A model generated the notes under the pieces. The model did not search any database and was not told the origin of the DNA. It saw only the letters and a program-made list of their open reading frames with translations. A stretch of DNA of 55,665 bases. It comes from Nostoc sp. DedSLP01 (GTDB lineage Bacteria > Cyanobacteriota > Cyanobacteriia > Cyanobacteriales > Nostocaceae). The stretch is taken from the NCBI GenBank assembly GCA_034530875.2, contig JAVRCJ020000043.1, positions 1 through 55,665 on the forward strand, in the 5' to 3' direction. The position numbers and the translations under genes were made by a program. Positions 11,659 to 31,567 of this stretch are shown in pieces (position 1 is the first letter of the stretch; the number at the start of each line of letters is the position of its first letter).

Positions 11659-11745
11659 AAAGTTTTTGGAATGGGGTATAAATCCTCGTTACAAAAACGG
11701 CCTCCTGCCTTCTGCCTCCTGCCCCCTGCCTCCTGCCTTCGTTAA
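11659..11745. repeat. Dispersed repeat family (GTTACAAAAACGGCCTCCTGCCTTCGTTA) overlapping the 3' end of the collagen-like gene
   Basis: Near-identical copies at ~10246-10275 and 14820-14878. This copy has an expanded CTGCC(T/C)(C/T) heptamer tract. Confidence 0.75.
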
Positions 11746-14875: not shown

Positions 14876-16138
14876 TTATTTGTTGAGACGGTAAAGAATT
14901 TCGCCAGCTTTGGGAACAAGCAAAATCCCCTCATGTTCGTGATTTGACCATTCTGTTAGTTGAATGGTAGCCGGATCGCGATAATTCAAGTTATGAGCAG
15001 CACAACGTTCTGGAGAAATACCAGTGGCTAGAGTCACACAAATTCGCGGTTTTTCTCCTTCTATAAAATCAAAAGTACCCATACCTTTCAAGTGCGTACT
15101 ATGTGCTAGCACTCCCGCAGGATATCCTTGGAATTTATCCCATTGTTTCACAAAATAATCGCGCACATGATAACCAATTTCGGCTAATATCTCACCGTGG
15201 GTATAGCTAAATTCAGTAATATGAGGTGCATAAATAATTACTTCTCCGCCATCTGCTACTACTGGCTCTAGTTTGTACATTCCTTTAGCAGCCGTCCAAA
15301 TGTCATCGTACATTTGGGGCATAACTGAAAGTACTTGTTTAAAAGGCTTATTTACATATTTAATATGCACTTTTGCGGATAATTTAGCAGCAGCTTCCCA
15401 GGCCGATTCTGGTCTATCTATATAAAGTCCAGCTAAGCGATTTGTTTTCGGTGCAACTACCATTGCCAAGCAAAGTTTCGGCGTAGGAATCATATTAGCA
15501 GCTCGGTTTATCAAGCGTCGAACTGGCGTGATTCCAAGGGTACCAATAATTTCATAGCAGGTAATTAAAGCTCCTAACCAATGCGATATATTAATTACTT
15601 CCTGACCGCTAATACCTGGGAAAAAATATTTATTTCCCCCAGAAAAGCCGACAACTTCATGGGGAAACACCGGGCCGCAAATAATTATCAAATCGTATTC
15701 TGTTACCAATTTATTTACACGCACATTAACTTCTTGATGTAGCATTCCATTACTAATTTCTGCTATTTCCGCAGCCGAAATTACTCCACAAGAAATAAAA
15801 GTCTCTGGTAAATTCCAAAGATGATTAAAGATGCGAACTCCTTTAAAAATTGTTTCTCTTTCTTCTGCTGTTACCCCGACTAAACGATTGATTTGTTCCT
15901 CATTCATGGGATTATGCGTACCCAGAGCGATTAAAAAATCTAATGCAGCAACCCTGTGATTTAACTCTTGGTGCAGCAGTCGAAACATTTGCGGGATAGG
16001 TGCGGTGCGCGTTCCATCGGGAATTAATACTAGGATGCGCTGTCCGTTAAACTTAGCATCAGCCAAGGCTTGACGAACAAGTTGGGCAACTTCCTCATCT
16101 GCAAGTGTGCCATTATTAGTTACGGCTAATGAATACAT
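14876..16138 (-). CDS. LarA-family (lactate racemase superfamily, nickel-pincer) enzyme; predicted D-mannonate/D-gluconate 2-epimerase
   Basis: LarA motifs PDGTR, ALGTH, PHEVVGFSGGNK, ISH, WTAAK. The substrate is inferred from the adjacent uxuB/uxaC and gntK. Confidence 0.85.
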   Translation of the reverse strand: MYSLAVTNNGTLADEEVAQLVRQALADAKFNGQRILVLIPDGTRTAPIPQMFRLLHQELNHRVAALDFLIALGTHNPMNEEQINRLVGVTAEERETIFKGVRIFNHLWNLPETFISCGVISAAEIAEISNGMLHQEVNVRVNKLVTEYDLIIICGPVFPHEVVGFSGGNKYFFPGISGQEVINISHWLGALITCYEIIGTLGITPVRRLINRAANMIPTPKLCLAMVVAPKTNRLAGLYIDRPESAWEAAAKLSAKVHIKYVNKPFKQVLSVMPQMYDDIWTAAKGMYKLEPVVADGGEVIIYAPHITEFSYTHGEILAEIGYHVRDYFVKQWDKFQGYPAGVLAHSTHLKGMGTFDFIEGEKPRICVTLATGISPERCAAHNLNYRDPATIQLTEWSNHEHEGILLVPKAGEILYRLNK

Positions 16139-16140
16139 TT

Positions 16141-16995
16141 TTAAACTCCGCTGTAGATACTAAACCCGCCGTCTACCGGCACGACTACGCCGTTGACGAA
16201 ACTAGAACCAGAACTGCATAACCAAATCAAAGTACTGAGTAATTCCTGCGGTTCTCCAAAACGTCCGGCTGGGGTATGGTTGATGATTTTTTGCCCGCGA
16301 TCGCTTAAACTTCCATCTGGATTTAGCAGTAAATCTCGATTCTGTTCGCCAATAAAAAAACCTGGGGCGATCGCATTGACTCGCAACCCAGCACCGTATT
16401 TTTGAGCGAGTTCTACAGCAAGCCAACGAGTAAAGTTATCTATTGCTGCTTTCGCCGCCGAGTAACCAACCACTCGACTAATCGCACGGATAGCAGACAT
16501 AGAAGAAATATTCACAATACAACCTTGGGGTTGATTTCTTTCCACCATCGCTTGTCCAAAAACTTGGCTTGGTAGTAAAGTCCCCATCAAGTTGAGACTC
16601 ACAACTTCCTCAAATGCTGTGTGTGGCATATTAAAAAAACTCGCATCAGGAGTAATTGTGGCAGCCGGAATATTACCACCAGCAGCGTTTACCAAGATGT
16701 CTATCTGACCCCAATGCTTCAAAATGGCGTGTTTGGCTATTTCTAGTTGGGAGCGATCGCCAACATCTGCCAGCACGGCCATACTTTCCCCACCATTAGC
16801 AGTAATATCAGCTACCACTGCATCCGCCCGTACTTCATTGCGGCCGAGAACGACTACCCGCGCTCCCGCCAGCGCCAAACCCCGCGCCATCGCCCCACCA
16901 AGCACGCCATAACCGCCGGTAACTACTGCTACCTGGTCTTTGAGGCTAAAAAGTTTATCCAAAATTAAATCTGGTTTATTTAATAAATCTGGCAT
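16141..16995 (-). CDS. uxuB: SDR-family D-mannonate oxidoreductase (fructuronate reductase, Bacillus UxuB type)
   Basis: TGGYGVLG, NAAGGN, NISSM, YSAAK, VNAIAPGFF and C-terminal VDGGFSIYSGV typical of SDR-type UxuB. Adjacent to uxaC. Confidence 0.85.
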   Translation of the reverse strand: MPDLLNKPDLILDKLFSLKDQVAVVTGGYGVLGGAMARGLALAGARVVVLGRNEVRADAVVADITANGGESMAVLADVGDRSQLEIAKHAILKHWGQIDILVNAAGGNIPAATITPDASFFNMPHTAFEEVVSLNLMGTLLPSQVFGQAMVERNQPQGCIVNISSMSAIRAISRVVGYSAAKAAIDNFTRWLAVELAQKYGAGLRVNAIAPGFFIGEQNRDLLLNPDGSLSDRGQKIINHTPAGRFGEPQELLSTLIWLCSSGSSFVNGVVVPVDGGFSIYSGV

Positions 16996-17116
16996 TGATA
17001 ATTCCTCTATTTGAAAAAAGGGTGTTGCTGATTGAAAACCTCACGCAGAGTCGCAGAGAGCAAGAGTTGAGAAGAGTTGATTTTTGGGTTTCATATTCAA
17101 ATTCAGCAAACACAAC

Positions 17117-17146
17117 TTGTAGAGACGCGATGAATCGCGTCTTCTT
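17117..17146. repeat. Small palindromic dispersed repeat, copy 2
   Basis: TTGTAGAGACGCGATGAATCGCGTCTTCTT, the exact reverse complement of 21280-21309. Confidence 0.8.
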
Positions 17147-17153
17147 ACCTGTA

Positions 17154-18575
17154 TTAGTTCAATTTGTAAGCGTCTTTGGCAAGGTCGTAAGCTAAAGCAT
17201 GAGCCATTTGATAGCCCTCTTCTTCCTCAATTAACCCGCGTATTACTAACCCCGCTAACCAGTTACAAGCTACGCGGCGCCAAACTGTGTGGCGGGCAGG
17301 AATGGAAACAAAAGCCCGCGTATCATCGTTAAAGCCAGCAGTATTATAAAGTCCGGCTGTTTCCATTACTTGATTGAAGTATCGTTCCATTCCATTCATG
17401 CTGTCGTGAAACCACCAAGGCGGCCCCAGCAGTACTGCGGGATAATGACCGGCTAGGGGCGCTAGTTCGCGGCTATAAGTGCTTTCATCCAATCCAAACA
17501 AAATTAAGTGAAAGTCTTTATGATTGCCGTAGGCTGACAATAACGGTTGCAAATTTTCCGTCCACTCTAGTTTCAAGGGAATATCAGCACCTTTATCAGA
17601 TCCAAATCGCTCAAAGACGGCCGGGTTATGGTTACGCATAATACCGCAATGCATTTGCATCACTAGACCATCTTCTACACTCATGCGAGCCATTTCCATG
17701 AACGTATGACCGATAAAACGCTCTGCATCGCCTGGATTTAGCTTGTTGGTTAATGCTCTAGCAAAGATGGCTTCTGCTTCTTGGTCGCTCAGACGGTTAG
17801 TATAAGGTGTCGCTGCGCTATGGTCGGTAGCTGTCGCACCCATTTTTTTAAAGAAAGCTCGACGTTCTTCTAGAGCCTGGACGAAAGCAGCGTAAGTGCT
17901 AATTTCTCGCCCAATAGTACTTTCCAGCTTGGCTAAATTTTCCCGCCAGCCAGGAGTATCTAGATTGACTACTGCATCTGGTCGAAAAGTAGGTCTTATC
18001 TGAGTGAAACCTTCTTGATGTAGGGATTGATGGTACTCAAGGGTGTCACTGGCCGCATCGGTAGTACAAAGAACTTCAATATTAAACTTTTTAAATAAAG
18101 CACGAGGCGAGAATTCAGGTAAAAATAACAGCTTTTGCAAGTAATCGTAGATATATCCAGCATTACGAGAATTTAAAGGCTCGTCCACACCAAAAACGTT
18201 AGTGAGTTCGTCTTTCAGCCACAACCCAGAGGGAGTACCTTGAAATAAGTAAAAATGGTCGGCGAAAAGCTGCCAAATTTTGCGGTGGTCGGTTTCTATC
18301 GGCGAACCATCGCGGCTAGGTATGCCCAAAGCTGATAAAGGTACGCCCCGACTATAGAGCATACGGAAAATGTAATGGTCGGGAATAATCAATAATTCCG
18401 TTGGCGAACCAAAACGCGCTGCGGGATTAGCTAATAAAGCTGGGTCTACGTGTCCGTGGGGACAGACTAGCGGTAGATTAGATATTTTGTCAAAAAATTG
18501 ACGCGCTAGCTGTCTTTGTTCTGGTTCTGGAGCAAAACAGCGATCGCTAGATAAACTCCATTTTTTAGTTAACAT
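17154..18575 (-). CDS. uxaC: Uronate (glucuronate) isomerase
   Basis: PHGH metal motif, PDHYIFRML, LCTTD, PTFRPD, MQMHCG, WWFHDS, GFNDDTRAF, ARH. Confidence 0.95.
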   Translation of the reverse strand: MLTKKWSLSSDRCFAPEPEQRQLARQFFDKISNLPLVCPHGHVDPALLANPAARFGSPTELLIIPDHYIFRMLYSRGVPLSALGIPSRDGSPIETDHRKIWQLFADHFYLFQGTPSGLWLKDELTNVFGVDEPLNSRNAGYIYDYLQKLLFLPEFSPRALFKKFNIEVLCTTDAASDTLEYHQSLHQEGFTQIRPTFRPDAVVNLDTPGWRENLAKLESTIGREISTYAAFVQALEERRAFFKKMGATATDHSAATPYTNRLSDQEAEAIFARALTNKLNPGDAERFIGHTFMEMARMSVEDGLVMQMHCGIMRNHNPAVFERFGSDKGADIPLKLEWTENLQPLLSAYGNHKDFHLILFGLDESTYSRELAPLAGHYPAVLLGPPWWFHDSMNGMERYFNQVMETAGLYNTAGFNDDTRAFVSIPARHTVWRRVACNWLAGLVIRGLIEEEEGYQMAHALAYDLAKDAYKLN

Positions 18576-18600
18576 ACTTTACTATCCAAAGTCTAAAAAT

Positions 18601-19731
18601 TTACGTACCTGAAAATGGGCATTGGGCATCGGGCATTGGGCATTGACCTTGGGGTACGGGACATTGGTTATTCTTCACCTGCTCCCTGCCTCCCCCACCA
18701 CTCCCTTGCTCGAATGCAGCAGTACTACTGCGCTGTACTAGAAAAGGAGATAAAACGATGTTTTCTACACTTTTGTCTTGTAATAAGTCGAGTAACATTT
18801 GCATAGCCGAGCGACCAATTTCTAACATTGGTTGACAAACTGTTGTCAGCGAAGGGGTTATGTAACGGCAAAGAGCAATATCGTCAAATCCAACTAAACT
18901 TAAATCTTGGGGTACTGAAATATTTAGTTCTCGGCAGGCTAAGAGAGCGCCAACTGCTACCATATCGTTGTAACAAAAGATGCCTGTGACGCCAGCGTTA
19001 AATAGTTGAGGTAGCATTTTTTTGCCAGTATCAACATCGCTGATTCTGATAATTTCTTCATCGCTAATTGCCACCCAATCGCTGTTTTGTGGCAATCCAG
19101 CCTCCCTTAAAGCCGTGCGATATCCTTCTAAACGCAAGTAGTTCGACTGACTGCGATCGCCTACACCCAAGTAACCAATAGCCCTATGTCCCAAACTTAT
19201 CAGATGCTCTACCGCCAATCGACCGCCTAACAAGTCATCTACTGTCACTGTGTGAAATGTTTCAGGTTGATTTTCTGTCTGGCTATTAATCAAAACTATC
19301 GGTACAGCAATTTCTCCTACTTCATTTGTATTATTTTTATTAATTCGCGAATCAGTGACTAATATGCCGTCCACTCTGCGACGATGAAAATTATCAATAG
19401 CTGCTATTTCCTGCTCGAAATCCCGATGTGAAGCAGTTAAGAAAACACTCAAACCTGCCGTTCTCGCTACCTGTTCGATTCCCTCTACCACCTCAGCGTA
19501 AAAGGGATCTGCAATTGAAGTCACAACTACCCCAACAGTATTAGTGCGCTGATTTTGCAAACTTTGAGCGATCGCGTTTGGTACATAGTTCATCTCCCGC
19601 GCTATTTTCTTAATTTCCTCTCTCACCTTCGGGCTAATTAAAGAGTTATCTCGCAAAGCACGTGAAACTGTAGAATGAGAAACGCCTGCCCGACGAGCAA
19701 TATCTTCGATGGAAACTTTTCGTTTCTTCAT
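18601..19731 (-). CDS. LacI-family transcriptional regulator (C-terminal tail derived from STRR repeats)
   Basis: SIEDIARRAGVSHSTVSRAL HTH, YVPNAIAQSL hinge, FCYNDMVAVG, GFDD, LTTV. Confidence 0.95.
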   Translation of the reverse strand: MKKRKVSIEDIARRAGVSHSTVSRALRDNSLISPKVREEIKKIAREMNYVPNAIAQSLQNQRTNTVGVVVTSIADPFYAEVVEGIEQVARTAGLSVFLTASHRDFEQEIAAIDNFHRRRVDGILVTDSRINKNNTNEVGEIAVPIVLINSQTENQPETFHTVTVDDLLGGRLAVEHLISLGHRAIGYLGVGDRSQSNYLRLEGYRTALREAGLPQNSDWVAISDEEIIRISDVDTGKKMLPQLFNAGVTGIFCYNDMVAVGALLACRELNISVPQDLSLVGFDDIALCRYITPSLTTVCQPMLEIGRSAMQMLLDLLQDKSVENIVLSPFLVQRSSTAAFEQGSGGGGREQVKNNQCPVPQGQCPMPDAQCPFSGT

Positions 19732-19745
19732 AATCTTACCATATT

Positions 19746-19765
19746 TAATGCAAACGTGTGCATTA
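19746..19765. promoter_or_regulatory. LacI-type operator upstream of the lacI-uxaC-uxuB-larA operon
   Basis: TAATGCAAACGTGTGCATTA near-palindrome with central CG, 15 bp upstream of the ATG. Matches the sites upstream of miox. Confidence 0.75.
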
Positions 19766-20132
19766 TAATTTTAATTATTAGCAAAGTTGAGCCATCTGTC
19801 AATCTATTTCCCCAGTGACTAAAGACAAATCTGGAGTCAGGATAAAAATGTAACAAAAAGTTAACTAAAAGTTTGTTGTATCAAAAAGAAATATTTCAGT
19901 TGACTTACTTTATTGTTACTCAAGCAAGTTCGCATGATGGCGATCGCAGTAAATATATCGCGTTTGGTAAAAGGCTTATGAATTAGACAAATGCAGAAAA
20001 ATTTTAATTAATAATAGAGCAGATTTCCACGAAATTGTAGTACCCCATCTAAATCTGATATTAAGCTAACACAGCATCCTAACTCTAATTCTGACTCCTG
20101 AATTCTCACTTCTTAACTTTTTTTGCAAAACT

Positions 20133-20633
20133 ATGAACGACAAATCAATGGTTATCCTCGTTATGGGTGTTTCTGGAGCTGGTAAAACCACCATTGGAAA
20201 ACTGCTAGCAGAATCTTTAGGCTGGGAATTTAGCGATGCTGATACTTTTCATTCGCCAGAGAATGTAGAGAAAATGCGGTGCGGTATTCCCCTGACTGAA
20301 GCAGACAGAATACCTTGGTTACAAGATTTGCAAACAGCTATTAAAAACTGGCTGCAAGAAAATAAAAATATGGTTTTGGCGTGTTCGGCTCTCAAAGAAA
20401 GCTATCGGCAATTTCTGGTAGTGGATAGCCAACGCATGAAACTAGTTTACCTTAAAGGCTCTTATCAATTAATTCAAAAGCGCTTGCAAGAGCGTCACAA
20501 TCACTACATGAGCGAGAAACTGTTAGACAGCCAGTTTAATACTCTAGAAGAACCATTAGACACTATATATATAGATGTTATTGAGACACCCAAGGTAATT
20601 GTCCAAAACATTATAACAGCTTTAGGAATTTAG
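20133..20633 (+). CDS. gntK: Gluconokinase (GntK/IdnK type)
   Basis: MGVSGAGKTT, DADTFH...NVEKM..GIPL.EADRIPWL, ACSALK.SYR, LLDSQF.TLEEP. Confidence 0.93.
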   Translation: MNDKSMVILVMGVSGAGKTTIGKLLAESLGWEFSDADTFHSPENVEKMRCGIPLTEADRIPWLQDLQTAIKNWLQENKNMVLACSALKESYRQFLVVDSQRMKLVYLKGSYQLIQKRLQERHNHYMSEKLLDSQFNTLEEPLDTIYIDVIETPKVIVQNIITALGI

Positions 20634-20789
20634 CATCTATCTTTGGGTGTGTGTCTATTTAGGTATGGAAAGAAACACTATGTTAGTGTAGAAAATAGGG
20701 AATGTAGCGACTATAAGAAGTTTTTTCAAGCAATCAAATAGGAGTTATATATCAAGCGATCGCATTATTTTGGTGAGAGGAGGAAAGTA

Positions 20790-21122
20790 GTGTTTCGTAG
20801 ATTAGCTCAACAACATCAGGAAGTAGTCCAAGACTTAGTAATGAACCTGGAAGCTTTATCAATAGCACTTGAGAAACGCGGTTATACTACGTCTTGTTAC
20901 ACGTGCGGCAACCAAATCAAGAGTGCTTCATTTATGGTTAGCCTGGGAGAAAAGCACCTGATTCGATTTATAGTTTCTGATTACGGCATTACTTGGATGG
21001 AAATTTTTGATGACCGCGAATTAATGAAGCTAGAGGGTGCAGAAGCAATCAATCAGTTGCAGGAGTTGTCCGATATTATCAAGTATCCACAGCAACAAAT
21101 TAATATTGTTAGCCATCCATAG
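20790..21122 (+). CDS. DUF1815-like cyanobacterial hypothetical protein
   Basis: MF.RLAQQH...VQDLVMNL.AL...LE.RGY..SCYTCG pattern, GAGGAGG RBS, GTG start. Confidence 0.7.
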   Translation: MFRRLAQQHQEVVQDLVMNLEALSIALEKRGYTTSCYTCGNQIKSASFMVSLGEKHLIRFIVSDYGITWMEIFDDRELMKLEGAEAINQLQELSDIIKYPQQQINIVSHP

Positions 21123-21279
21123 CAAAAAATTCATTTAGTTAAGTCAATAGTATTTTTTGAAGGCAAAATACACACTTGCTTCAATAGATAAAAAACTTAA
21201 CAATTACGTTGTGCGGCAACTACCAACTGCCAAACGCGAACATCCTACAACGGCAACAACAGCAACACATCATTGGGTG

Positions 21280-21309
21280 AAGAAGACGCGATTCATCGCG
21301 TCTCTACAA
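21280..21309. repeat. Small palindromic dispersed repeat, copy 3
   Basis: AAGAAGACGCGATTCATCGCGTCTCTACAA. Confidence 0.8.
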
Positions 21310-21458
21310 TTTGTTTTCAAATTGGTATCACCGTAGATCTTAAACTCCTTACTCTGTCTGCGCGACGCCACTTGCCTCAAGTCGGGGAACCCGCCCAACG
21401 CAGTGGCTCTTCTGCGTGAGTAATTGATGCACAGGTTATGCAAAAAAACTTAACACAC

Positions 21459-21513
21459 AGTTTTGCACACGTGTGCAAAACTAAATATATACAGTCTATG
21501 CACACCTGTGCAT
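21459..21513. promoter_or_regulatory. Tandem LacI-type operators upstream of miox
   Basis: Perfect 24-bp palindrome AGTTTTGCACACGTGTGCAAAACT (21459-21482) and ATGCACACCTGTGCAT (21498-21513). Confidence 0.8.
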
Positions 21514-21569
21514 TAATGAATTCCAAAGGTTTTATCCAAATGACAACTTAGTTGCAAAAGTAGGAAAAT

Positions 21570-22466
21570 ATGTCTCCAACTCTAAATCGTTCCCTCCCAG
21601 AAGCTGAAAACAATCCATTAAATTCACTAGAAGAATGGGAAGAAGATTTACTTAATCGCTATCCCGATCCCAACAGCATAGTTAAAGAAGGTAAAACTGT
21701 TGAAGGCTACAGGAATTACGAAACGCCTACCAGAGATACAGTCAAAGAATTCTACCGATTAAATCATATTAATCAAACTTATGATTTTGTTCTACAGAAA
21801 AAAGCAGAGTATTTAAAATTTGATAAAAAAGAAATGACCGTTTGGGATGCGGTGGAATTTTTGAATCAATTAGTTGACGATTCAGATCCCGATACAGACC
21901 TAGACCAATTACAGCATTTATTGCAGACATCAGAAGCAATTCGCGCTGATGGTCATCCCGATTGGATGGTGCTGACAGGTTTCTTTCATGATATGGGGAA
22001 AGTACTTTGTTTATTTGGTGAGCCACAATGGGCTACTGTTGGCGATACTTATCCTGTAGGTTGTGCATTTTCAGACAAAATTGTTTACTCAAAATTTTTC
22101 AAAGATAATCCCGATCGCAACAACCCGAAATATAACACTAAATATGGTGTATACGAGCCGAATTGTGGATTGAGCAACGTACATATCTCATGGGGACATG
22201 ATGAGTATTTCTATAGCATGATGAAACCATATTTACCCGAAGCAGCATTGTACATTCTTCGCTATCACTCTTTTTATCCCCAACATCGCGAAAATGCCTA
22301 CATTCATTTAATGGATAAACACGATGAAGAAATGTTTAAATGGGTGAAATTATTCAATCCCTACGATTTGTATTCTAAAAATCCTAATCCTCCTGATTGG
22401 CAAAAACTCAAGCCTTACTACGAGGATTTAGTAGCTAAATATTTACCGCCGACATTAAAGTTCTAA
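21570..22466 (+). CDS. miox: myo-Inositol oxygenase (di-iron HD-domain enzyme)
   Basis: MIOX motifs DDSDPD, HLLQTSEAIR, HDMGK, QWATVGDTYPVGC, SWGHDEY, RYHSFYPQH, FNPYDLYSK. Confidence 0.95.
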   Translation: MSPTLNRSLPEAENNPLNSLEEWEEDLLNRYPDPNSIVKEGKTVEGYRNYETPTRDTVKEFYRLNHINQTYDFVLQKKAEYLKFDKKEMTVWDAVEFLNQLVDDSDPDTDLDQLQHLLQTSEAIRADGHPDWMVLTGFFHDMGKVLCLFGEPQWATVGDTYPVGCAFSDKIVYSKFFKDNPDRNNPKYNTKYGVYEPNCGLSNVHISWGHDEYFYSMMKPYLPEAALYILRYHSFYPQHRENAYIHLMDKHDEEMFKWVKLFNPYDLYSKNPNPPDWQKLKPYYEDLVAKYLPPTLKF

Positions 22467-23143
22467 ATGTCTAGCGTTGCAATACCAAATATTTTGGTTC
22501 CTGATTTAAGTTATTGAGATTGCAAAGGTTTGTGCTTGTTATTATCTGCAAAAAATCTTTGCAAAACCTCAGCCAAGAGGAAGAGTTTTGTGACTCCAGT
22601 AGTATAAATTAAAAATTTTTCTGTTTCCTCTCAAGCGACCATCGCCCCTAGCTTTGGCAAGCCATCGCTGTTTTTGGCGATCGCACTTGTATTCGCATCT
22701 GACATGATATTACATGGAATCAAAATGAAAAACACTTCTTAAGTTTGTAAACTTCGATAAACAAAATTAATTTTGGGAAAAAATCCAAGATAGAATGGAA
22801 AACCAAATAAGATAAAAGTTTGAATTTTGATAACCTAAAATTATTGTAATTTTAGCAAACCAATTTTTTCAAACTAGCAATTTTCAAACTTAATTTTCCC
22901 AAAAGCCAGACTTTAGAATTATTGCAATTTTCGGTATTTTGCTGATTAACGCAAAAGCTTAATTTGTTGTCACTAATAACACAAAACTCAAATCGCATCA
23001 ATTGCCAGAGGTTTGAGCGAGTTTAACTTGCCAAAGCTATCAGTAAAACTCAATGCTGAAGTTGTCAAAATTCTAAAATATTGCGGATTTATATTCTGCT
23101 AATTTTAACCAGATACAAAAGCATTGTTGGATTCTAGATAAAT

Positions 23144-24133
23144 ATGAAAAAAGTTAGTTTATTAGCTAGCATATTAAGTCTTGTTGGGACTGCGGTTGTG
23201 GGTTGTAATAGCGCTCCAAATGATACCGCTGCCAATAATAGCCCTAATACTGCTGTGAACGCGAGTTTAGAGAATAAAGGTTTGCAGACAATTGGTATTA
23301 GCTTGGGCGATTTAGGTAATCCCTTTTATCTAGCAGTGCAGAGGGGAGCCGAACAACAAGCAAAAAAACTTAGTAATGATATCAGAGTCAATACAGTTTC
23401 TAGTGCTTTCGACCTCAACCAACAAACTAACCAAATCGAAAATTTCACAGCGGCGAATACTGATTTAATTATTCTGAGTGCGGTTGACAAAAAAGGAGTG
23501 AAACCAGCAATCGACCAAGCAAGAAGCGCAGGTAGGGTGGTGATTGCGGTAGATTCAGCCGTTGATGCAGATGTGGATGCGATGATTAGCTCCAACAATA
23601 CCCAGGCTGGAGAGATTGCTTGCAAGTATATTGGCGATCGCCTCAACGGTAAAGGCAATGTAGTTATTCTCAACGGTACGCCAATGGACTCCATCAATCA
23701 GCGAGTCAGCGGTTGTAAGACTTCCTTAGCCAAATATCCAGATATCAAAATCGTCTCAGACCAGAACGCCGAAGGGACAAGAGATGGCGGACTGAGAGTC
23801 ATGACTGACGTGCTAACAACCTTCCCCAAAATCGACGCCGTATTTGCCACCAACGACCAAAGCGGTATCGGTGCAGACTTAGCAGCCAGACAAGCAAGAC
23901 GTAAAGAATTTTTTATTGTTGGGGTTGATGGTTCCCCAGATGCAACCAAAGCAATGGAAGACAAAGACGGCTTATTTGTTGCAACTGCCGCCCAAGACCC
24001 CGCAGGCATGGCTCAAAAAGCTGTTGAAGTCGGCAACGAAGTCATCCAAGGCAAAAAACTGAGTAACCCAGAGATTCTGGTTCCAGTCAAATTGGTTACC
24101 CGCGAGAGCCTTGCTAGTTACAAAGGGTGGTAG
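23144..24133 (+). CDS. Sugar ABC transporter substrate-binding lipoprotein 1 (RbsB-like)
   Basis: Lipobox VVGC, NPFY, VIAVD, NNTQAG, VFATND, VGVDG, AAQDP. Confidence 0.9.
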   Translation: MKKVSLLASILSLVGTAVVGCNSAPNDTAANNSPNTAVNASLENKGLQTIGISLGDLGNPFYLAVQRGAEQQAKKLSNDIRVNTVSSAFDLNQQTNQIENFTAANTDLIILSAVDKKGVKPAIDQARSAGRVVIAVDSAVDADVDAMISSNNTQAGEIACKYIGDRLNGKGNVVILNGTPMDSINQRVSGCKTSLAKYPDIKIVSDQNAEGTRDGGLRVMTDVLTTFPKIDAVFATNDQSGIGADLAARQARRKEFFIVGVDGSPDATKAMEDKDGLFVATAAQDPAGMAQKAVEVGNEVIQGKKLSNPEILVPVKLVTRESLASYKGW

Positions 24134-24135
24134 TG

Positions 24136-24265
24136 GGGGCAGGGGACAGGGGGAGATGGGGAAGTGTGGAAAGAGAGGGGGGAAAGATTTCTTCACCATC
24201 CTCCCACAGTTCCCATACCTCCCACACCTCCCACACCTCCCACACTTCCTGCTTGCCCAATGCCC
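24136..24265. repeat. G-rich/C-rich STRR-like intergenic hairpin element
   Basis: GGGGAGATGGGGAAGTGTGG...(CTCCCACAC)n, homologous to 25345-25565. Confidence 0.7.
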
Positions 24266-24302
24266 TGTTTGGCCAATTCAGATTTTTTTAAAGAGGAGAG
24301 AT

Positions 24303-25340
24303 ATGAATTTAAGAAAAATTGCGATCGCAGCTAGTTTAATCAGTCTGGTTGGTGGTGGCGTAATTGGTTGCTCGAATGGTGCGGAAAATGGCAATACTGC
24401 TACTAATCCCGATGCCAACGCACCTGGTAACACTGCTACTAATACTAGCGCCCAGAGTAGCGCAGGTACTGGGAATGGAAAATTGCGATCGGTAGGTTTT
24501 ACCGCCGGCGATTTAAGTAACCCCTTCTTCGTACTGATGGGACAGGAAATTGAAGCCACAGCCAAAAAAATCGGCGGCAATAATGTCAAAACAACTGTAG
24601 TTTCCAGCGCTTACGACCTCAACCAACAAGCCAACCAACTGGAAAACTTTACGGCGGCGAATACTGACGTCATTATTCTTAATGCTGCCGATAAAAGTGG
24701 GATTAAGCCAGCAGTAGAAAAAGCCAAACAAGCCGGCAGAATTGTGATCGCAGTAGATACGGGTGCTGAGGGCGGTGTAGATGCAACGGTTACGACCAAT
24801 AACGTGCAAGCTGGAGAAGTTGCTTGTAAATATATTGCCGATCGCCTCCAAGGTAAAGGTAATGTAGTAATCGTCAACGGGCCTCAAGTAGACTCGGTGA
24901 TTCAGCGAGTTAGTGGTTGCCAAAATGTATTGGCCAAATATCCCGATATCAAAATTCTCTCCAAAGACCAGAATGCAGAAGGTAGCAGAGATGGCGGACT
25001 GAGAGTCATGACAGATTTGCTAACAACCTTCCCTAAGATAGATGCTGTTTTTGCAATTAATGACCCCAGTGGAGTGGGAGCAGAACTAGCAGCTATCCAA
25101 GCACAACGCAAAGATTTCTTTATTGTTGGCGTTGATGGTGCGCCAGAAGCGATTAAGGCGATCGCTAACAAAGATAGTATATATGCAGCAACAGCGACTC
25201 AAAATCCCCGCGGCATGGCAGCCAAAGCAGTCGAAGTTGGCAACGACATTTTGAACGGTAAAAAACCCGCTAACCCCACAATTTTGATTCCAGTCAAGCT
25301 GATTACCAAAGATAACGTCAGCACAGAAAAAGGTTGGTAA
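24303..25340 (+). CDS. Sugar ABC transporter substrate-binding lipoprotein 2 (paralogue of 1)
   Basis: True start ATG 24303 after a GAGGAG RBS (the ORF-track extension to 24111 is repeat translation). Lipobox VIGC. Highly similar to binding protein 1. Confidence 0.9.
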   Translation: MNLRKIAIAASLISLVGGGVIGCSNGAENGNTATNPDANAPGNTATNTSAQSSAGTGNGKLRSVGFTAGDLSNPFFVLMGQEIEATAKKIGGNNVKTTVVSSAYDLNQQANQLENFTAANTDVIILNAADKSGIKPAVEKAKQAGRIVIAVDTGAEGGVDATVTTNNVQAGEVACKYIADRLQGKGNVVIVNGPQVDSVIQRVSGCQNVLAKYPDIKILSKDQNAEGSRDGGLRVMTDLLTTFPKIDAVFAINDPSGVGAELAAIQAQRKDFFIVGVDGAPEAIKAIANKDSIYAATATQNPRGMAAKAVEVGNDILNGKKPANPTILIPVKLITKDNVSTEKGW

Positions 25341-25344
25341 ATGG

Positions 25345-25565
25345 TGACTGGCGATCGGGGACTGGGGATTGGGGGAGATGAAGAGTGTGGGGAGAGTGGG
25401 GAGATGAGGAGATGGGGAAGTGTGTGGAGTCTGGGGAGAGAAGGGGAAAGATTTCTTCCCGATCCTCCCACACCTCCCACACTTCTCAATGCCCCATAGC
25501 CAATCCCCAGTCCTCAGTCCCCAGTCCCCAGTCCCCAATCCCCAGTCCCCAGTCCCCAGTCCCCA
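25345..25565. repeat. STRR-rich intergenic element including (CCCCAGT/CCCCAAT)n
   Basis: Heptamer tandem arrays in inverted arrangement. Confidence 0.8.
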
Positions 25566-25584
25566 TTATTTTTAGGAGTTACTC

Positions 25585-27138
25585 GTGACCACAAGTATTG
25601 AAACCTCCTTTCCTGAAGCGCCAACTGCCGCCCCTGTACTGGAAATGCAAGGGATTGGCAAACGATTTCATGGCGTACCTGCTTTGCAAAATGTGAACCT
25701 GACCATTTATCCGGGAGAAGTTCACGCACTCATGGGGGAAAACGGAGCAGGTAAAAGCACATTGATGAAAATCCTCGCCGGGGCTTACATTGCCGATGAA
25801 GGCGAGATTCGCATCAATGGTACTCCCGTGAAAATTAGCGATCCGGCTTCAGCACGCCAAGCAGGGATTAATCTGATTTATCAAGAACTGAACGTTGCAC
25901 CCAACTTAACCGTTACCGAAAATATTTTCATGGGTAGCGAGTTACAGCGGGGTCAGTTATTAGACCGCAAAGCTATGGAGGACGAGGCACAGCTAGTACT
26001 TCAAAGCTTGGGAGCAAGTTTTACACCCAATACCATAGTTGGTACTTTATCCATTGCCGAACAGCAACAGGTAGAAATTGCCAGGGCCCTGAAAGACAAC
26101 AGTCGGGTTTTGGTGATGGATGAGCCGACAGCAGCCTTATCTGACCGCGAGACTGAGCGTTTGTTTCAAGTTATTCGCAGACTGCGAGATGATGGCATTG
26201 CCATTATCTACATCAGTCACCGCATGGAAGAAATATATGCATTGGCTGACCGGATTAGCGTGCTACGCGACGGTCAATATATCGGCAGTCTTACAAGGGA
26301 GGAGATTTCTGCCCAGCGATTAGTGCAGATGATGGTCGGTCGTTCGATGCAAGACTTTTACGAACATCAACGCCAAACCAATCCCGGCCCGGTGGTGTTG
26401 GAAGTTAGAAATATCAGCGACGGACGCAAGATTGAACCGGCTAGTTTTCAAATTCGGGCTGGTGAGGTACTCGGTTTAGCAGGACTGGTGGGTGCTGGAC
26501 GCACAGAAGTATGTCGGCTGATTTTTGGTGCCGATCGCAAAGCCAGTGGCGAAGTATTCTTGAATGGCGTGAAACTCAATATTAATAGCCCCAGCGATGC
26601 CATTGCTGCTGGTATCGGCTATGTCCCAGAAGACCGCAAAGACCAAGGTTTATTTTTGGAAATGAGTTCCCGCAAGAATATTGCCCTGAACACGCTCAAA
26701 CAGGATGCTAAGGCAGGGGTTGTCAACTGGGGTTCAGTCAATCAGTTGGCGACGGAAGCGGTGCAAAACTTCAATATCCGACTGGCTAATTTGGAAATTA
26801 GAGCCGTGGATCTTTCTGGTGGGAACCAGCAAAAACTACTATTGGCGCGTTGGCTAGCAATTAAACCCAGAGTCTTAATGCTGGATGAGCCGACACGCGG
26901 CGTAGATATCGGCGCTAAGAGCGAGATTTACCGGATTATTAGCGAATTAGCAGCCCAAGGCGTCGCTATTTTAATGGTTTCCAGCGAATTACCGGAAGTG
27001 GTCGGAATGAGCGATCGCGTTTTGGTAATGCGAGAAGGACGGCTAGTGGGCGAACTTGACGACAGTCCCGGTAAAGAAATTACCCAAGAAAAGATTATGC
27101 ATTATGGAACAGGAGCATCGGGAGTAGCAGAATCATGA
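25585..27138 (+). CDS. Sugar ABC transporter ATP-binding protein (RbsA-like, two NBDs)
   Basis: [51 protein letters not shown]. Confidence 0.95.
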
Positions 27139-28136
27139 GTCAAACAGTCAGACCTACCAATAGAAATAAAGTTACCAACAATCCAAACGCGCGATCGCCC
27201 AGATCCCTCGCCAGCTTTCTGGAAGTTGCAGGTATTTTACCAATCCTCGTACTTATCTGTATCTTATTTACCTTCCTTTCATCCAACTTCCTCACACCTG
27301 GTAACCTCGTCAATATCTTACGGCAGGCATCTATTAACATTGTCCTAGCCACAGGCATGACCTTCGTGATTCTCACCGGAGGTATTGATTTGTCTGTAGG
27401 GTCAATATTGGCTGTTTCTGCTGTAGTTGCCTTGATAGTATCGCTGCTTCCGGCTATAGGTTGGGCGGCTTTGCCTGCCGGCTTATTAGCAGGATTGCTT
27501 TTAGGCTTAGTCAACGGCGCTTTGATTACCTTTTTGGATGTGCCGCCTTTTATTGTCACATTGGGTTCGCTGACTGCTTTGCGCGGTACTGCTTATTTGA
27601 TTGCCAAGGGAACAACAGTTATTAACCGCGACATCAATTTTGCTTGGATTGGTAATAGCTATATCGGTCCTTTTCCCTGGTTGGTAATTATTGCCTTACT
27701 GGCTGTAGCGGTTAGCTGGTTTGTACTGCGGCAGACTGTTTTAGGAGTGCAAATCTACGCTGTAGGAGGTAACGAACGGGCAGCAAGATTAACTGGAATT
27801 AAAGTTAATCGCGTGCTGCTATTTGTTTATGGCGTGAGTGGATTGCTAGCAGGGTTGGCAGGAGTTATGAGTGCCAGCCGTCTTTATAGTGCTAGCGGTT
27901 TATTGGGTCAAGGTTACGAACTAGATGCGATCGCTGCTGTAATTTTAGGTGGCACTAGTTTTACAGGTGGGATTGGCACAATTGGCGGTACTCTTCTCGG
28001 TGCGTTAATCATTGCTGTTCTCAACAATGGTCTAACTCTGTTAAACATGTCCTTCTTCTGGCAACTAGTTGTGAAGGGACTAGTAATTATCTTTGCCGTA
28101 ATGATTGACCGTCTCCGCAGACGTTCCAGACGCTAA
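27135..28136 (+). CDS. Sugar ABC transporter permease (RbsC-like)
   Basis: [55 protein letters not shown]. Confidence 0.95.
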
Positions 28137-28359
28137 AAAGATAAAAGTTAAAAGTAAGAATTCACGAGTCAGAATAGTAATTTAGATATCTAAACATTAT
28201 TAATTATCAATTTTTGATTCTGAATTCTTACCTAATTAATTAAAATTTACTTAATTAATCGCTAATAAAATACTATAAACCTCTGCGTACCTCTGCGCTT
28301 GACTCTGCGCACCTTTGCGTTTAAAGATTATTTTCACTTTCAAAACTCAAAAAATTAAT

Positions 28360-29403
28360 ATGAAAATTATCAACACTGCTCTTTGCGGTTATGGATCCTC
28401 AGGAAAGATATTTCACGCACCATTTATAAATCTGCATTCTGGATTTAAATTAATAGGTGCTTGGGAAAGAAGTAAAAAGGTGATACAGGAAGATTATCCC
28501 GATACCAAAAGCTATCCTTCATTAGAAGCTTTGCTAGCAGATGAGCAAGTTGAATTAGTAGTAGTAAATACGCCAACTTATACTCATTACGAATATGCAA
28601 AACAGGCTTTACTTGCAAATAAACATCTAATAGTAGAAAAAGCATTTACTACAACAGTAGAAGAAGCCAAAGAACTTAAAGAATTAGCCGAAACCAAGCA
28701 AAAAAAATTATCTGTATATCAAAATCGTAGGTGGGACAGCGATTTTCAAACAGTAAAAAAAATTGTTCAATTAGACTTATTAGGAAATATTATTGAAGCA
28801 GAATTTCATTTTGAACGATACAAACCAACGCTCAGCCTTAAACAACATGTAGAAGTTCCCGGCCCTGGTGCAGGACTGATTAAAGATTTAGGGCCGCACT
28901 TAATAGACCAAGCTTTGCATTTATTTGGGATGCCTAATGCTGTTTTTGCAGACATGCGAATCACGAGAGCAGCGTCACAGATAGATGATTATTTTGAGTT
29001 GATACTTTACTACGAAAAATTGCGTGTCAAGTTGAAAGCTAGTTTTCTAGTGCGCGAACCTGCGCCGTCGTACATCATACATGGAACAAAAGGTTCTTTT
29101 CTCAAAAGCAGGGCTGATGGACAAGAAGACAAATTAAAAGCTGGTATGAAGCCTAACACTGATGACTGGTACACAGAACCGGAAAGTGAATATGGCTTGT
29201 TACACACAGAAAAAGACGGGAAAGTAATTCGAGAAAAAGTCAAAAGCTCGCAGGGTAGTTATTTAGGCTACTACGATGCAATCTATAAAGCAATTGCCGA
29301 CCGCCAGCCAATTCCCGTAACTGCCGAAGACGGAATTAATGTAATGCAAATTATAGAGGCAGCTATTAAAAGCAGCAACGAGCAAAGAGTAATAGCAGTT
29401 TGA
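28360..29403 (+). CDS. Gfo/Idh/MocA oxidoreductase, YdgJ/IolW (scyllo-inositol dehydrogenase)-like
   Basis: GYGSSG.IFHAP, VNTP..TH, VEKAF, YQNRRWDSDF, G.I.DLGPHLIDQ. ATG 28360 preferred over TTG 28315. Confidence 0.85.
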   Translation: MKIINTALCGYGSSGKIFHAPFINLHSGFKLIGAWERSKKVIQEDYPDTKSYPSLEALLADEQVELVVVNTPTYTHYEYAKQALLANKHLIVEKAFTTTVEEAKELKELAETKQKKLSVYQNRRWDSDFQTVKKIVQLDLLGNIIEAEFHFERYKPTLSLKQHVEVPGPGAGLIKDLGPHLIDQALHLFGMPNAVFADMRITRAASQIDDYFELILYYEKLRVKLKASFLVREPAPSYIIHGTKGSFLKSRADGQEDKLKAGMKPNTDDWYTEPESEYGLLHTEKDGKVIREKVKSSQGSYLGYYDAIYKAIADRQPIPVTAEDGINVMQIIEAAIKSSNEQRVIAV

Positions 29404-29416
29404 AGAAAAATTCACC

Positions 29417-29464
29417 AATTCAGAATGGGCTACGCCCCGCTACGCTAACAGGAGTCAGAATTCA
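29417..29464. repeat. SDR-type small dispersed repeat (GGGCTACGCCCCGCTACGCTAAC core)
   Basis: 48 bp identical (inverted) to 46144-46191. Variant core at 39107-39129. Confidence 0.8.
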
Positions 29465-29555
29465 CAAATTTATCTGTACGTTAATTGATGGTTTTGGCTT
29501 TTAACTCCTGAATTATGGCTCCTGGCCACAGATTTTCTATACCATATTACAGCCA

Positions 29556-31172
29556 ATGCTGAAAAATATTTTGTACAGTTTTCCACTGCTTTTATTGTTA
29601 TCCCCAGCAGTTTGGGCAACTCCTTTAGATGATAATTCAAATACCCCAGATGCTAACTTCGGTACTTTACAGGGACAAGTTACCTCAGTCTCTCAGTTTT
29701 CCGATGTCCAGCCGAGTGATTGGGCTTTTCAAGCACTGCAATCGCTGGTAGAACGCTACGGTTGCATTGCAGGTTATCCCAATTCCACCTTTCGCGGTAA
29801 CCGTGCTTTAACCCGTTACGAATTTGCCGCAGGTTTAAATGCTTGTTTGGATCGGGTTAATGAGTTAATTGCCACAGCTACCGGCGATTTAATTAATAAG
29901 GAAGATTTGGCAGTGCTGCAAAAGTTGCAAGAAGAATTTGCAGCAGAACTGGCAACTCTGCGGGGACGGGTGGATAGCTTAGAGGCGCGTAACGCCACAT
30001 TAGAGGCGCAGCAGTTTTCCACAACTACCAGGTTGAACGCTCAAATTATTACTGCTGTTACCGACACCTTTGGCGACAGAGTGGGAGGGGAACGCGATGA
30101 ATCCAACGCCATATTTGCGACTCGCGGCCGTCTGAACTTAGAGAGTAGTTTCACAGGCAAAGATATGTTGCGAGTGCGTCTGGAGTTTGGTAACTTTGCC
30201 AATCCCGATGGCTCAAGCCGAATTGCAGTAGCCAGCGGTACGGGAATGACGCGGCTCAACTTTGATTACGACAGCAACAATACACTCACCATTCCCCACA
30301 TTCGTTACTACTTCCCGGTGAGTGATTCCCTTTCCTTCGTTGTCGGCCCTACAGGTATTGGCTACAACGACATCACAGACAACGTAACCCCTGCTACTAT
30401 TGGCGATGATGGCAACGGCATTCCTTCGCTATTTGGTAAGAACAGTTTTCTCTTCGAGCGCGGTGGTGGTGGTGCAGCCGTCAACTGGAGTATCAGCAAA
30501 GACTTGGTTCTAACTCTGGGCTATTTAGCAAATACTCCCAACGAAACAACACAAAGCAGTGGGTTATTTAATGGCGGCTACAATGCTCTTGCCCATCTGG
30601 TGTATTACGGCAAACAAGGAGCAATTGGTGTCGCTTACTCTCATAGCTACAATCCTCCTGGAACTGTTAACGTTACAGGCTCAAGAGGTAGCGTCTTGTC
30701 GATTGCTCCCTTTGGCAACAACATTGCTACTTCCAACAGTATTATTGGCGTCCAAGGATACTATCGGTTTTCCCCAAACTTCCAAATCCACGGTTGGGGT
30801 GGATATATAACGGCAACTGCTGAGAGTTCTGGTTTGAGTGATATTTCTAATGGTAGGGGTGGAACAGATTCTCTGTTTGTGAACAATGGCGATAATGCTA
30901 ATGCCTGGTTTGGGGCGGTTGGCTTGTCCTTTCCAGATGTGGGAGGTAAAGGCAATCTGCCAGGAATTCTCGTTGGTTTGCCACCGCGTATATATAACAG
31001 TGATGTCCGTGAAGAAGCGGACAACGCTTACCACATCGAAGCATTCTATCGCTTACGAATGAATGACCACATCTCTGTAACTCCTGGTTTTTGGGTGATT
31101 GTCAACCCCGAAAACAATAGCGAAAATGATACTCAATATGTAGGAGTACTTCGCACAACATTCGATTTTTAA
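29556..31172 (+). CDS. Cyanobacterial SLH-domain outer-membrane porin (OprB/carbohydrate-selective type)
   Basis: VTSVSQFSDVQPSDWAFQALQSLVERYGC, RYEFAAGL, coiled coil, FSTTTRL, C-terminal LRTTFDF. Confidence 0.93.
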   Translation: MLKNILYSFPLLLLLSPAVWATPLDDNSNTPDANFGTLQGQVTSVSQFSDVQPSDWAFQALQSLVERYGCIAGYPNSTFRGNRALTRYEFAAGLNACLDRVNELIATATGDLINKEDLAVLQKLQEEFAAELATLRGRVDSLEARNATLEAQQFSTTTRLNAQIITAVTDTFGDRVGGERDESNAIFATRGRLNLESSFTGKDMLRVRLEFGNFANPDGSSRIAVASGTGMTRLNFDYDSNNTLTIPHIRYYFPVSDSLSFVVGPTGIGYNDITDNVTPATIGDDGNGIPSLFGKNSFLFERGGGGAAVNWSISKDLVLTLGYLANTPNETTQSSGLFNGGYNALAHLVYYGKQGAIGVAYSHSYNPPGTVNVTGSRGSVLSIAPFGNNIATSNSIIGVQGYYRFSPNFQIHGWGGYITATAESSGLSDISNGRGGTDSLFVNNGDNANAWFGAVGLSFPDVGGKGNLPGILVGLPPRIYNSDVREEADNAYHIEAFYRLRMNDHISVTPGFWVIVNPENNSENDTQYVGVLRTTFDF

Positions 31173-31254
31173 ATTTGACCAAGCGACTTTAGCTGCTGTT
31201 GTCCTGACGTGAATTCGATGAAGCTCTCCTTGCCTTGAACTAATGTTCGAGTTT

Positions 31255-31279
31255 GTCCCTCTCCGAATCGGAGAGGGAC
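31255..31279. terminator. GC-rich hairpin downstream of the porin gene
   Basis: GTCCCTCTCCGA-A-TCGGAGAGGGAC followed by GGTTTT. Confidence 0.45.
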
Positions 31280-31567
31280 GGTTTTATGCAGTGATACCAG
31301 AGAGGATTTTTTGAAAGTACGATCGGGCGTAAGTCATTGCATTACCACTCTCTATATCTGTTTCAGAATCTTAATGAAAACAGCGATTCGTGATATTCTC
31401 ATACTTAATATAGTAAAAATCAGTATGCATCTAATGCATTCTAGGTTTCCTAGAGGCGAATCAATTTATATGAAAAACTCTGCACTGCTAAACTTCTAAA
31501 AACAGGCAGTTATTAGCTGTGAAATAATCAAGAATGCTTCCAAACAAACCTCAGTCAATCAAATGGA

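Follow-up and report, generated by a model that had tools for sequence, protein, structure and literature searches.

A predicted route from myo-inositol to 6-phosphogluconate through a nickel-pincer epimerase in the hrm-frt locus of Nostoc sp. DedSLP01

Introduction

The hrm (hormogonium-regulating) locus of Nostoc, joined to the frt sugar importer, has been under study since 1997, and the labels MIOX, UxaC, UxuB-like, GntK and LarA-like have already been published for its products (PMC5987646). Here we describe this locus in Nostoc sp. DedSLP01, on contig JAVRCJ020000043.1 (C43; 55,665 nucleotides, the whole of which we call the window) of an 8.57 Mb genome with a completeness of 99.78%, and propose that it encodes a catabolic route from myo-inositol. 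The frtABC genes form a fructose transporter, repressed by FrtR, also called HrmR (PMC8461463), and both a sugar-uptake role of OprB and the repression of hormogonia by sugars are given in PMC10095879. In the published models, the hrm locus makes a signal and not catabolic carbon, HrmA being unknown or just LarA-like; a 2021 review (PMC8074062) lists hrmA without a homologue and hrmE without a function. The N. punctiforme locus carries hrm together with frtA1A2BC-glcP-mviM-oprB, with HrmR sites reported before hrmR and hrmE, and the accounts of it in PMC5987646 and PMC8461463 give neither a joined pathway nor a substrate for HrmA.

Parts of the chemistry are known from other bacteria. In the hexuronate shunt of Thermotoga maritima (uxaE-uxaD-gntE-gntK-gnd; PMC3750489, PMC6978723, PMC7583248), a short-chain dehydrogenase/reductase (SDR), a nickel-pincer nucleotide (NPN) epimerase, a gluconate kinase and Gnd carry fructuronate into the pentose phosphate pathway, as we propose for hrm. 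Unlike hrm, this shunt is fed by pectin or galacturonate via UxaE and not by MIOX, has a GntR-family regulator, and lies in a genome with uxuA. The glucuronate operon of Francisella (PMC3479022) clusters MIOX, UxaC and a mannonate oxidoreductase, as hrm does, and a step from inositol to glucuronate is proposed there; however, its exit is UxuA-KdgK-KdgA (Entner-Doudoroff), and the operon as listed contains no LarA-family gene. Extracts of Lactobacillus suebicus also take mannonate to 6-phosphogluconate without dehydration, with a mannonate kinase acting first and a 6-phosphomannonate epimerase second (PMC6978723). In contrast to what we propose for hrm, phosphorylation comes first and the route is galacturonate-fed; its genes are not identified in that account. 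Finally, groups 19 and 20 of the LarA superfamily have been shown to epimerise mannonate and gluconate, with GntE1 of Corynebacterium as the in vitro member of group 19 (PMC7583248).

The locus in DedSLP01

By its gene content, the cluster between 14876 and 31172 of the window is the known hrm locus joined to the fructose importer frtA1A2BC, mviM and oprB. We put a probability of roughly 60% on the reading that it encodes, under HrmR, a catabolic route from inositol via glucuronate, fructuronate, mannonate and gluconate to 6-phosphogluconate. A sequence-only reading of this DNA had named twelve genes here, and all twelve are intact open frames of the families it gave: miox, uxaC, uxuB, larA and gntK, a LacI regulator, an ABC importer, a Gfo/Idh/MocA dehydrogenase and a porin. 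It overlooked two further genes, one for DUF1815 and one for a second binding protein. Its five-step chemistry stands as the best-supported reading, but the cluster is not new, since the hrm-frt locus had already been described.

The genes hrmR-I-U-A diverge from hrmK, which is followed by hrmE, frtA1A2BC, mviM and oprB; these are the same genes in the same order as in N. punctiforme. The two loci differ in that glcP, placed between frtC and mviM in N. punctiforme, is missing from that position (28137-28359) in DedSLP01 and lies on contig C8 (240677-242074), in that mviM is intact here and a pseudogene in N. punctiforme (PMC5987646 supplement), and in that the SnoaL "unk1" frame of N. punctiforme was not found among the open frames of at least 100 aa here. 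Across 24 cyanobacterial hrm loci, hrmU adjoins hrmA in 24/24, the hrmI-R-K set is kept in 22/24 (the remaining two end too early), and hrmE lies at most 10 kb away in 20/24, so the grouping of these genes is not due to chance. Two genomes (G075 and G014; loci L130 and L131) carry the hrmRIUA block inverted, with hrmA abutting hrmK.

Enzymes of the predicted route

The gene hrmA (14876..16138, minus strand; 420 aa; PF09861, Lar_N) most likely encodes an NPN-dependent enzyme of LarA group 19, a predicted D-mannonate/D-gluconate 2-epimerase. Its best PDB sequence match is 4NAR from T. maritima (E 2.5e-63), and the predicted model of HrmA (predicted local distance difference test, pLDDT, 84.6) aligns to the same structure with a Z of 41.4 and a root-mean-square deviation of 2.4 over 400; the next-best fold match to the model has a Z of 29.8, and lactate racemases fall below 30. 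HrmA D41, R44, H75, H160, K170, H186 and K285 correspond to LarA D72, R75, H108, H174, K184, H200 and K298, and these seven catalytic or NPN-binding positions are invariant in 81/81 aligned sequences. The group 19 signature (EV loop, W in helix 11, G-L-A-S-T-H region) is invariant in 25/25 cyanobacterial copies; HrmA agrees at 20/20 positions with Npun_F5335, at 18/20 with the assayed GntE1, and at 11/20 with group 20 (GntE2), to which the Thermotoga epimerase belongs. The best NCBIfam model for HrmA is that of group 18, at 192 bits and below its cut-off of 500. Npun_F5335 is placed in group 19 with a putative G2E function in Dataset S2 of PMC7583248, although the text of that paper names no Nostoc, cyanobacteria or hrmA and assays no cyanobacterial member. 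From a by-eye sequence comparison, its being the sole N. punctiforme row, and the supplement of PMC5987646, we infer that Npun_F5335 is hrmA. The nearest relatives of hrmA are from Nostoc (85-94%). The genes larB, larC and larE are all present above cut-off on other contigs of the genome (C8, C20, C24), as the sequence-only reading had suggested checking, and are not diagnostic. We observed larC in Nostocaceae without hrmA as well, where the NPN machinery therefore probably serves a different enzyme.

HrmE (21570..22466, plus strand; 298 aa; PF05153, E 2e-110) is most likely a myo-inositol oxygenase, predicted to make D-glucuronate. It matches mouse and human MIOX structures with E values of 1.7e-80 and 8.9e-77, and His116, His140, Asp141, His210, His233 and Asp266, aligned to mouse MIOX, are kept in 27/27 intact copies. 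We take these four histidines and two aspartates to be the HD-domain di-iron ligands of MIOX. The named nearest relatives outside the cyanobacteria are mostly Bacteroidota, at about 77-80%, and the MIOX of one member of that phylum, F. johnsoniae, has activity in yeast (PMC12076931).

HrmI (17154..18575, minus strand; 473 aa) is a uronate isomerase of the UxaC family by PF02614 and PRK02925 (498 against a cut-off of 387). HrmU (16141..16995, minus strand; 284 aa) matches the SDR-type fructuronate reductase, or D-mannonate oxidoreductase, model PRK08277 with 389 bits against a cut-off of 281, and has the YxxxK motif. In SDR enzymes, residues such as the Gly/Ala-Arg-Asn that follows strand 2 of HrmU in 24/24 relatives point to NADPH, which is probably its cofactor. 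If so, the first pass to ribulose-5-phosphate would be redox-neutral, and NADPH would be gained only by cycling pentose, which weakens the earlier suggestion that the route serves as an NADPH source. HrmK (20133..20633, plus strand) is a gluconokinase of the GntK/IdnK type (TIGR01313, 160 against a cut-off of 114), and is the sole copy in the genome by a single tblastn match; gntK is found in 189/221 genomes of the family.

The kinase and the epimerase could also act on other substrates or in the other order, with HrmK phosphorylating mannonate and HrmA epimerising 6-phosphomannonate, or with HrmA working on another hexonate or an aldarate. This order has been demonstrated in the L. suebicus extracts (PMC6978723), and the high KM of GntE1 (PMC7583248) would suit another substrate. 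HrmK also carries His-Tyr-Met in 48/48 copies within hrm or frt loci, as opposed to His-Phe-Met in 16/20 copies elsewhere, a change previously remarked upon in the supplement of PMC5987646. However, the tyrosine persists in two genomes without hrm enzymes (G168 and G192) and so may be lineage history, while in one genome with hrmE, I, U and A (G044) the locus lacks a kinase, and the GntK encoded elsewhere is of the ordinary His-Phe-Met form. In addition, the GntE enzymes that were assayed act on the free acid (PMC7583248). We thus regard a different order or substrate as improbable.

Searches for other uronate exits in the genome

The proposal that mannonate leaves by epimerisation depends on which other exits are encoded. 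The sequence-only reading had noted no uxuA in the window; searches extend this to the whole DedSLP01 genome and to 221/221 family genomes, none of which yielded uxuA. No ManD-type or sugar-acid dehydratase was found genome-wide, the sole MR_MLE protein being of the dipeptide-epimerase type and the sole IlvD/Edd protein being IlvD. With these absent, mannonate made by HrmU is left with epimerisation as the only known fate that we found. UxaE (PF16257) was found in 0/1 genome by a search whose control detects the T. maritima protein, with a blank tblastn, and altronate dehydratase was not found in DedSLP01 either. Galacturonate would therefore stop at tagaturonate, and the substrate left for use would be glucuronate, which MIOX produces. 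The Thermotoga-type shunt set of fructuronate reductase, GntE-like epimerase, gluconate kinase and Gnd is complete in DedSLP01, gnd being present in the genome. IolB/KduI (PF04962) was found in 0/1 genome, and IolC, IolD and IolE were not among the window proteins scanned, no genome-wide search for them having been made. We also considered an endogenous loop from glucose-6-phosphate through inositol to 6-phosphogluconate and rejected it, because inositol-phosphate synthase (PF01658) was not found in the DedSLP01 genome.

These searches bear on the published explanation, in which hormogonia are repressed by a galacturonate-like metabolite that the locus produces or alters and that feeds back on HrmR, with no real catabolism, and in which Frt and OprB are a separate import of fructose and glucose. 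PMC5987646 reports that galacturonate abolishes HrmR binding in vitro, that an hrmUA mutant of N. punctiforme, the one species for which the phenotype is known, is no longer repressed by hornwort extract, and that the hrm locus is confined to symbiosis-prone clades. On the other hand, the chain of genes is complete as far as a central metabolite and includes no enzyme for a branch, heterotrophs have this reductase-epimerase pair next to gnd and uxaE, and no galacturonate route was found in the genome. Moreover, a uronate signal should rise, not vanish, when HrmU and HrmA are lost. Mannonate or gluconate could be the signal, and signalling and catabolism can coexist; a locus devoted to a galacturonate-like signal is, in our view, quite unlikely.

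Regulation by HrmR

HrmR, also FrtR (18601..19731, minus strand; 376 aa; PF00356 and PF13377), is a LacI-family repressor whose role is taken from PMC8461463 and PMC5987646. A predicted palindromic operator stands before hrmR (19749..19762), directly downstream of a sigma70-like promoter (19802-19774, minus strand; 11/12 matches), and two stand before hrmE, one a perfect 14-bp palindrome (21464..21477) and one with a single mismatch (21499..21512). Their places before hrmR and hrmE agree with the HrmR targets reported for N. punctiforme. Since the pattern was derived from a palindrome scan of the window, its matches there arise by construction, and the relatives alone are independent: the operator precedes hrmR in 22/22 cyanobacterial loci holding hrmR and hrmE in 20/20 loci holding hrmE. 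With at most one mismatch, only these three sites occur in the 8.57 Mb (0, 1 and 0 in shuffles), while at two mismatches there are 9 genome sites compared to 20-25 in shuffles. The shared operator predicts that MIOX and the uronate genes belong to one regulon. It also occurs in 16/24 frt loci without intact hrmE, mostly together with hrmR, which indicates that HrmR is part of the fructose module as well.

A generic LacI operator pattern was tried as the HrmR site and dropped, as it matched coding DNA only. Promoter and terminator scans returned 25 sites (37 in shuffles) and 18 sites (17 in shuffles), so that single sites weigh by position alone, including a terminator-like hairpin after oprB (31253..31281, plus strand; 13 pairs, a consensus match only). 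Many relatives have one or two extra operator copies near the DUF1815 gene, and DedSLP01 has none there (19749-21512). A search of RNA runs gave one match, to a soil metatranscriptome, at 5% of words, and none of the locus tags searched was found in a rice-symbiosis proteomics supplement.

Co-occurrence and decay in Nostocaceae

Full-length hrmA, hrmI and hrmU each occur in 21 of the 221 family genomes (with one, three and one further fragments, respectively), and these are the same 21 genomes. All of them have hrmE and two FrtA proteins, so the conservation that the sequence-only reading had asked about is borne out. In these genomes, hrmE lies at most 10 kb from hrmA in 13, on the same contig at least 29 kb away in five, both genes still being intact, and on another contig in three. 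G200 and G068 each carry an isolated but intact hrmA next to a transposase. Intact hrmE is found in 27/221 genomes, with two more broken copies, and MIOX above cut-off in 6/301 genomes of the phylum, all in Nostocaceae.

The distribution also allows for two loosely connected modules, in which hrmIUA and hrmK salvage glucuronate from plant walls or the cell's own sheath, and hrmE merely rides before frt, its glucuronate going elsewhere (e.g., into exopolysaccharide) or nowhere. When the locus splits, hrmE remains with frtA; six intact copies of hrmE are orphans; and hrmR with its operator persists in frt loci without intact hrmE. However, 0/221 genomes have full hrmIUA but no hrmE, and hrmE evolves more quickly once hrmIUA is lost. 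Its median pairwise ratio of replacement to silent substitution rates (dN/dS) is 0.076 over 210 complete pairs and 0.149 over 15 orphan pairs, the pairs not being independent, compared to 0.083 and 0.118 for frtB and 0.079 and 0.091 for frtC. In the G220-G164 pair, 13 silent and 16 replacement changes separate the hrmE genes, and 19 and 5 the frtB genes. The orphan copies are thus under mild relaxation, with purifying selection continuing. Two of the six orphan genomes (G127 and G074) show remnants of the lost genes, and three more genomes (G099, G165 and G138) hold hrmE remnants only. No uronate enzyme other than Hrm was found among 20 neighbours of orphan or split loci, a survey that did not extend to glucuronate transporters or salvage kinases. 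We consider two loosely connected modules improbable, to much the same degree as a different order of the last steps.

Decay of the locus is visible in several relatives (L096 9522-10666; L097; L098; L092), with stacked remnants of hrmI, hrmU and hrmA in G127 and stubs of hrmI in G206 and G050 and of hrmU in G074.

Transport and accessory genes

The importer comprises two binding proteins, FrtA1 (23144..24133) and FrtA2 (24303..25340), the CUT2 ABC ATPase FrtB (25585..27138) and the permease FrtC (27135..28136), the latter two assigned by profile matches and all on the plus strand. The start of frtA2 is likely the ATG at 24303, which a ribosome-binding site precedes. Among 85 FrtA sequences from 54 loci, a quick tree separates FrtA1 (31 rows, always the first gene) from FrtA2 (54 rows) with a Shimodaira-Hasegawa-like approximate likelihood ratio test (SH-aLRT) support of 100, and 15 fixed differences distinguish them. 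Every single-copy frtA locus falls in the FrtA2 clade, which marks FrtA2 as the orthologue of the single fructose-binding FrtA; frtA of N. variabilis has likewise been assigned to this type (PMC8461463). FrtA1 is thus an extra sugar-binding protein with a clade of its own. It accompanies 26/27 intact hrmE genes, and of five genomes with FrtA1 but no intact hrmE, two hold truncated copies and one a remnant. Because it tracks hrmE, FrtA1 is a candidate binding protein for inositol or another cyclitol, although the pattern could also come from shared ancestry. PDB sequence and fold searches with FrtA1 returned generic CUT2 binding proteins only, the best being 4RWE, with no ligand in its title. 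The earlier claim that the route has its own transport and regulator is overstated, as Frt, OprB and HrmR form a fructose system and frtA occurs in 72/221 genomes versus 27 with intact MIOX.

MviM (28360..29403, plus strand) is a YvaA-like Gfo/Idh/MocA oxidoreductase (PRK11579 307.5, below the cut-off of 330; PDB YvaA, E 1e-80). Some homologues are automatically named scyllo-inositol 2-dehydrogenase, and MviM may feed other inositol isomers into the route. Over the 54 frt loci, mviM is full-length in five, cut by the locus end in one and fragmentary in four, many loci ending earlier, and this patchiness suggests an accessory role; its named nearest outside relatives are mostly Bacteroidota. 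OprB (29556..31172, plus strand) is a carbohydrate-selective porin with an SLH domain (PF04966, PF00395). The DUF1815 gene (20790..21122, plus strand; PF08844), named "unk2" in the supplement of PMC5987646, is also accessory and is missing from two loci that hold both hrmK and hrmE (L020 and L023).

Two neighbours on the minus strand lie outside the cluster: 11689-13143 encodes a 484-aa protein with a signal-like N end, Gly-Asp-rich collagen-like repeats and no Pfam match, and 14123-14623, after hrmA, is a DUF6174 gene found only in the closest relatives (4/24 loci).

Relatives outside the cyanobacteria

In a quick tree of the best 80 of 586 relatives, the cyanobacterial HrmA sequences group in one clade, and three Chloroflexota/Thermomicrobiota sequences lie closest to it. 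A Chloroflexota-like donor for HrmA and a Bacteroidota-like donor for HrmE are suggested, and no recent transfer is apparent from the GC content. Among 56 non-cyanobacterial hrmA loci, the same reductase occurs in 35, uxaE in 18, gnd in 14, uxaC in 5, an FGGY/GntK kinase in 6 and MIOX in 0. Conversely, of 80 metagenomic MIOX loci (43/80 reach 5 kb), two hold hrmA, both Nostoc-like, and LarA was found in 0/78 of the non-Nostoc loci. Genes for LacI, sodium symporters and SusC/D accompany MIOX in the Bacteroidota loci, three of which hold a close hrmU homologue.

The non-cyanobacterial hrmA loci also show a 306-aa HAD-like protein beside group 19 epimerases and gnd in 12/56 (e.g., L050:535-1452) and a pyrophosphate (PPi)-dependent phosphofructokinase-like gene in 6 of 56. 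In four Chloroflexota loci (L053, L061, L072 and L087), IolO (5-keto-L-gluconate epimerase) stands with uxaE, the reductase and a group 19 epimerase, apparently a Thermotoga-style inositol route ending in that epimerase.

Discussion

In the catabolic route that we propose, inositol would be taken up from outside, most likely via OprB and the Frt transporter using FrtA1. HrmE would convert myo-inositol and O2 to D-glucuronate, HrmI would isomerise this to D-fructuronate, and HrmU would reduce it, probably at the expense of NADPH, to D-mannonate. Once charged with the nickel-pincer cofactor that the genome's LarB, LarC and LarE make, HrmA would then invert C2 to give D-gluconate, which HrmK would phosphorylate to 6-phosphogluconate; through Gnd this would enter the pentose phosphate pathway as ribulose-5-phosphate. 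The inducer of HrmR is likely to be one of the uronate intermediates, and the hrmUA mutant phenotype would fit if repression of hormogonia needs flux past HrmA, which would accord with the effect of sugars on hormogonia (PMC10095879). Gene identities, active-site residues, co-occurrence, the shared operator and the absence of the searched exits are observed directly; every substrate, the flux, the inducer and the transport are inferred.

Several observations weigh against this catabolic route. First, the authors of PMC5987646, citing Campbell 2003, favour a signal. Second, the KM of GntE1 for mannonate is 120 mM, and a different, related substrate is suspected by the authors who measured it (PMC7583248). 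Third, HrmU codon 29 of DedSLP01 (16909-16911), in the glycine-rich cofactor motif, is Tyr where 39/39 relatives covering the site have Ser; this protein sequence is on record on three contigs, and the private change may impair or alter the enzyme. Fourth, flavonoids induce hrmA and hrmE is reportedly under negative regulation by fructose (PMC10095879, PMC8074062), effects that inositol does not explain. Fifth, 6/27 genomes keep intact hrmE under purifying selection without intact hrmIUA, and the 21 genomes with hrmIUA are kin from six genera and not independent. In 13/13 hrmE-region loci hrmE directly precedes frtA, and the operators outlast its decay, so the linkage may partly reflect a shared promoter. 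The presence of larC in 47/47 chosen genomes, 21 of them picked for having neither hrmA nor hrmE, and the wide spread of gntK mean that these two genes say little about the pathway. Finally, a UxuA-family match was found in 13/50 other group 19 carriers (50/56 loci used, mostly metagenome-assembled genomes of unstated completeness), and the idea that group 19 epimerases strictly exclude UxuA was not upheld.

The sequence-only reading knew of no description of this route. The locus and the reactions are known, both halves having been described in Thermotoga and Francisella, and the joined route is probably unreported. Our literature search found no paper that links MIOX with a LarA epimerase or calls HrmA a gluconate epimerase, with supplements, where both closest prior statements sat, lying outside the search; the consulted portions of PMC11770544, PMC6702271, PMC9620832 and PMC8074062 contain neither.

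The hrm locus is a classic of symbiosis research whose mutant phenotype dates from 1997 and whose biochemistry is not agreed. Joining the hrm and LarA literatures gives HrmA a predicted reaction, cofactor and substrate, and makes the questions directly testable. If the route is right, the NPN machinery widely carried by the sampled Nostocaceae would have a named target, and the GntE shunt would have an oxygenase entry without a counterpart in the other MIOX and GntE neighbourhoods examined. We further speculate, and hold it unlikely as a whole, that myo-inositol or a similar cyclitol is the factor by which host plants repress hormogonia, with FrtA1 as its receptor, that uronate made by MIOX lifts HrmR repression and so also opens the fructose importer, and that the repression of motility needs flux through the nickel-pincer epimerase to 6-phosphogluconate. 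If true, a plant-cyanobacterium developmental switch would depend on nickel and LarBCE by way of a composite route, its MIOX being Bacteroidota-like, its uronate genes Chloroflexota-like and its gluconokinase resident.

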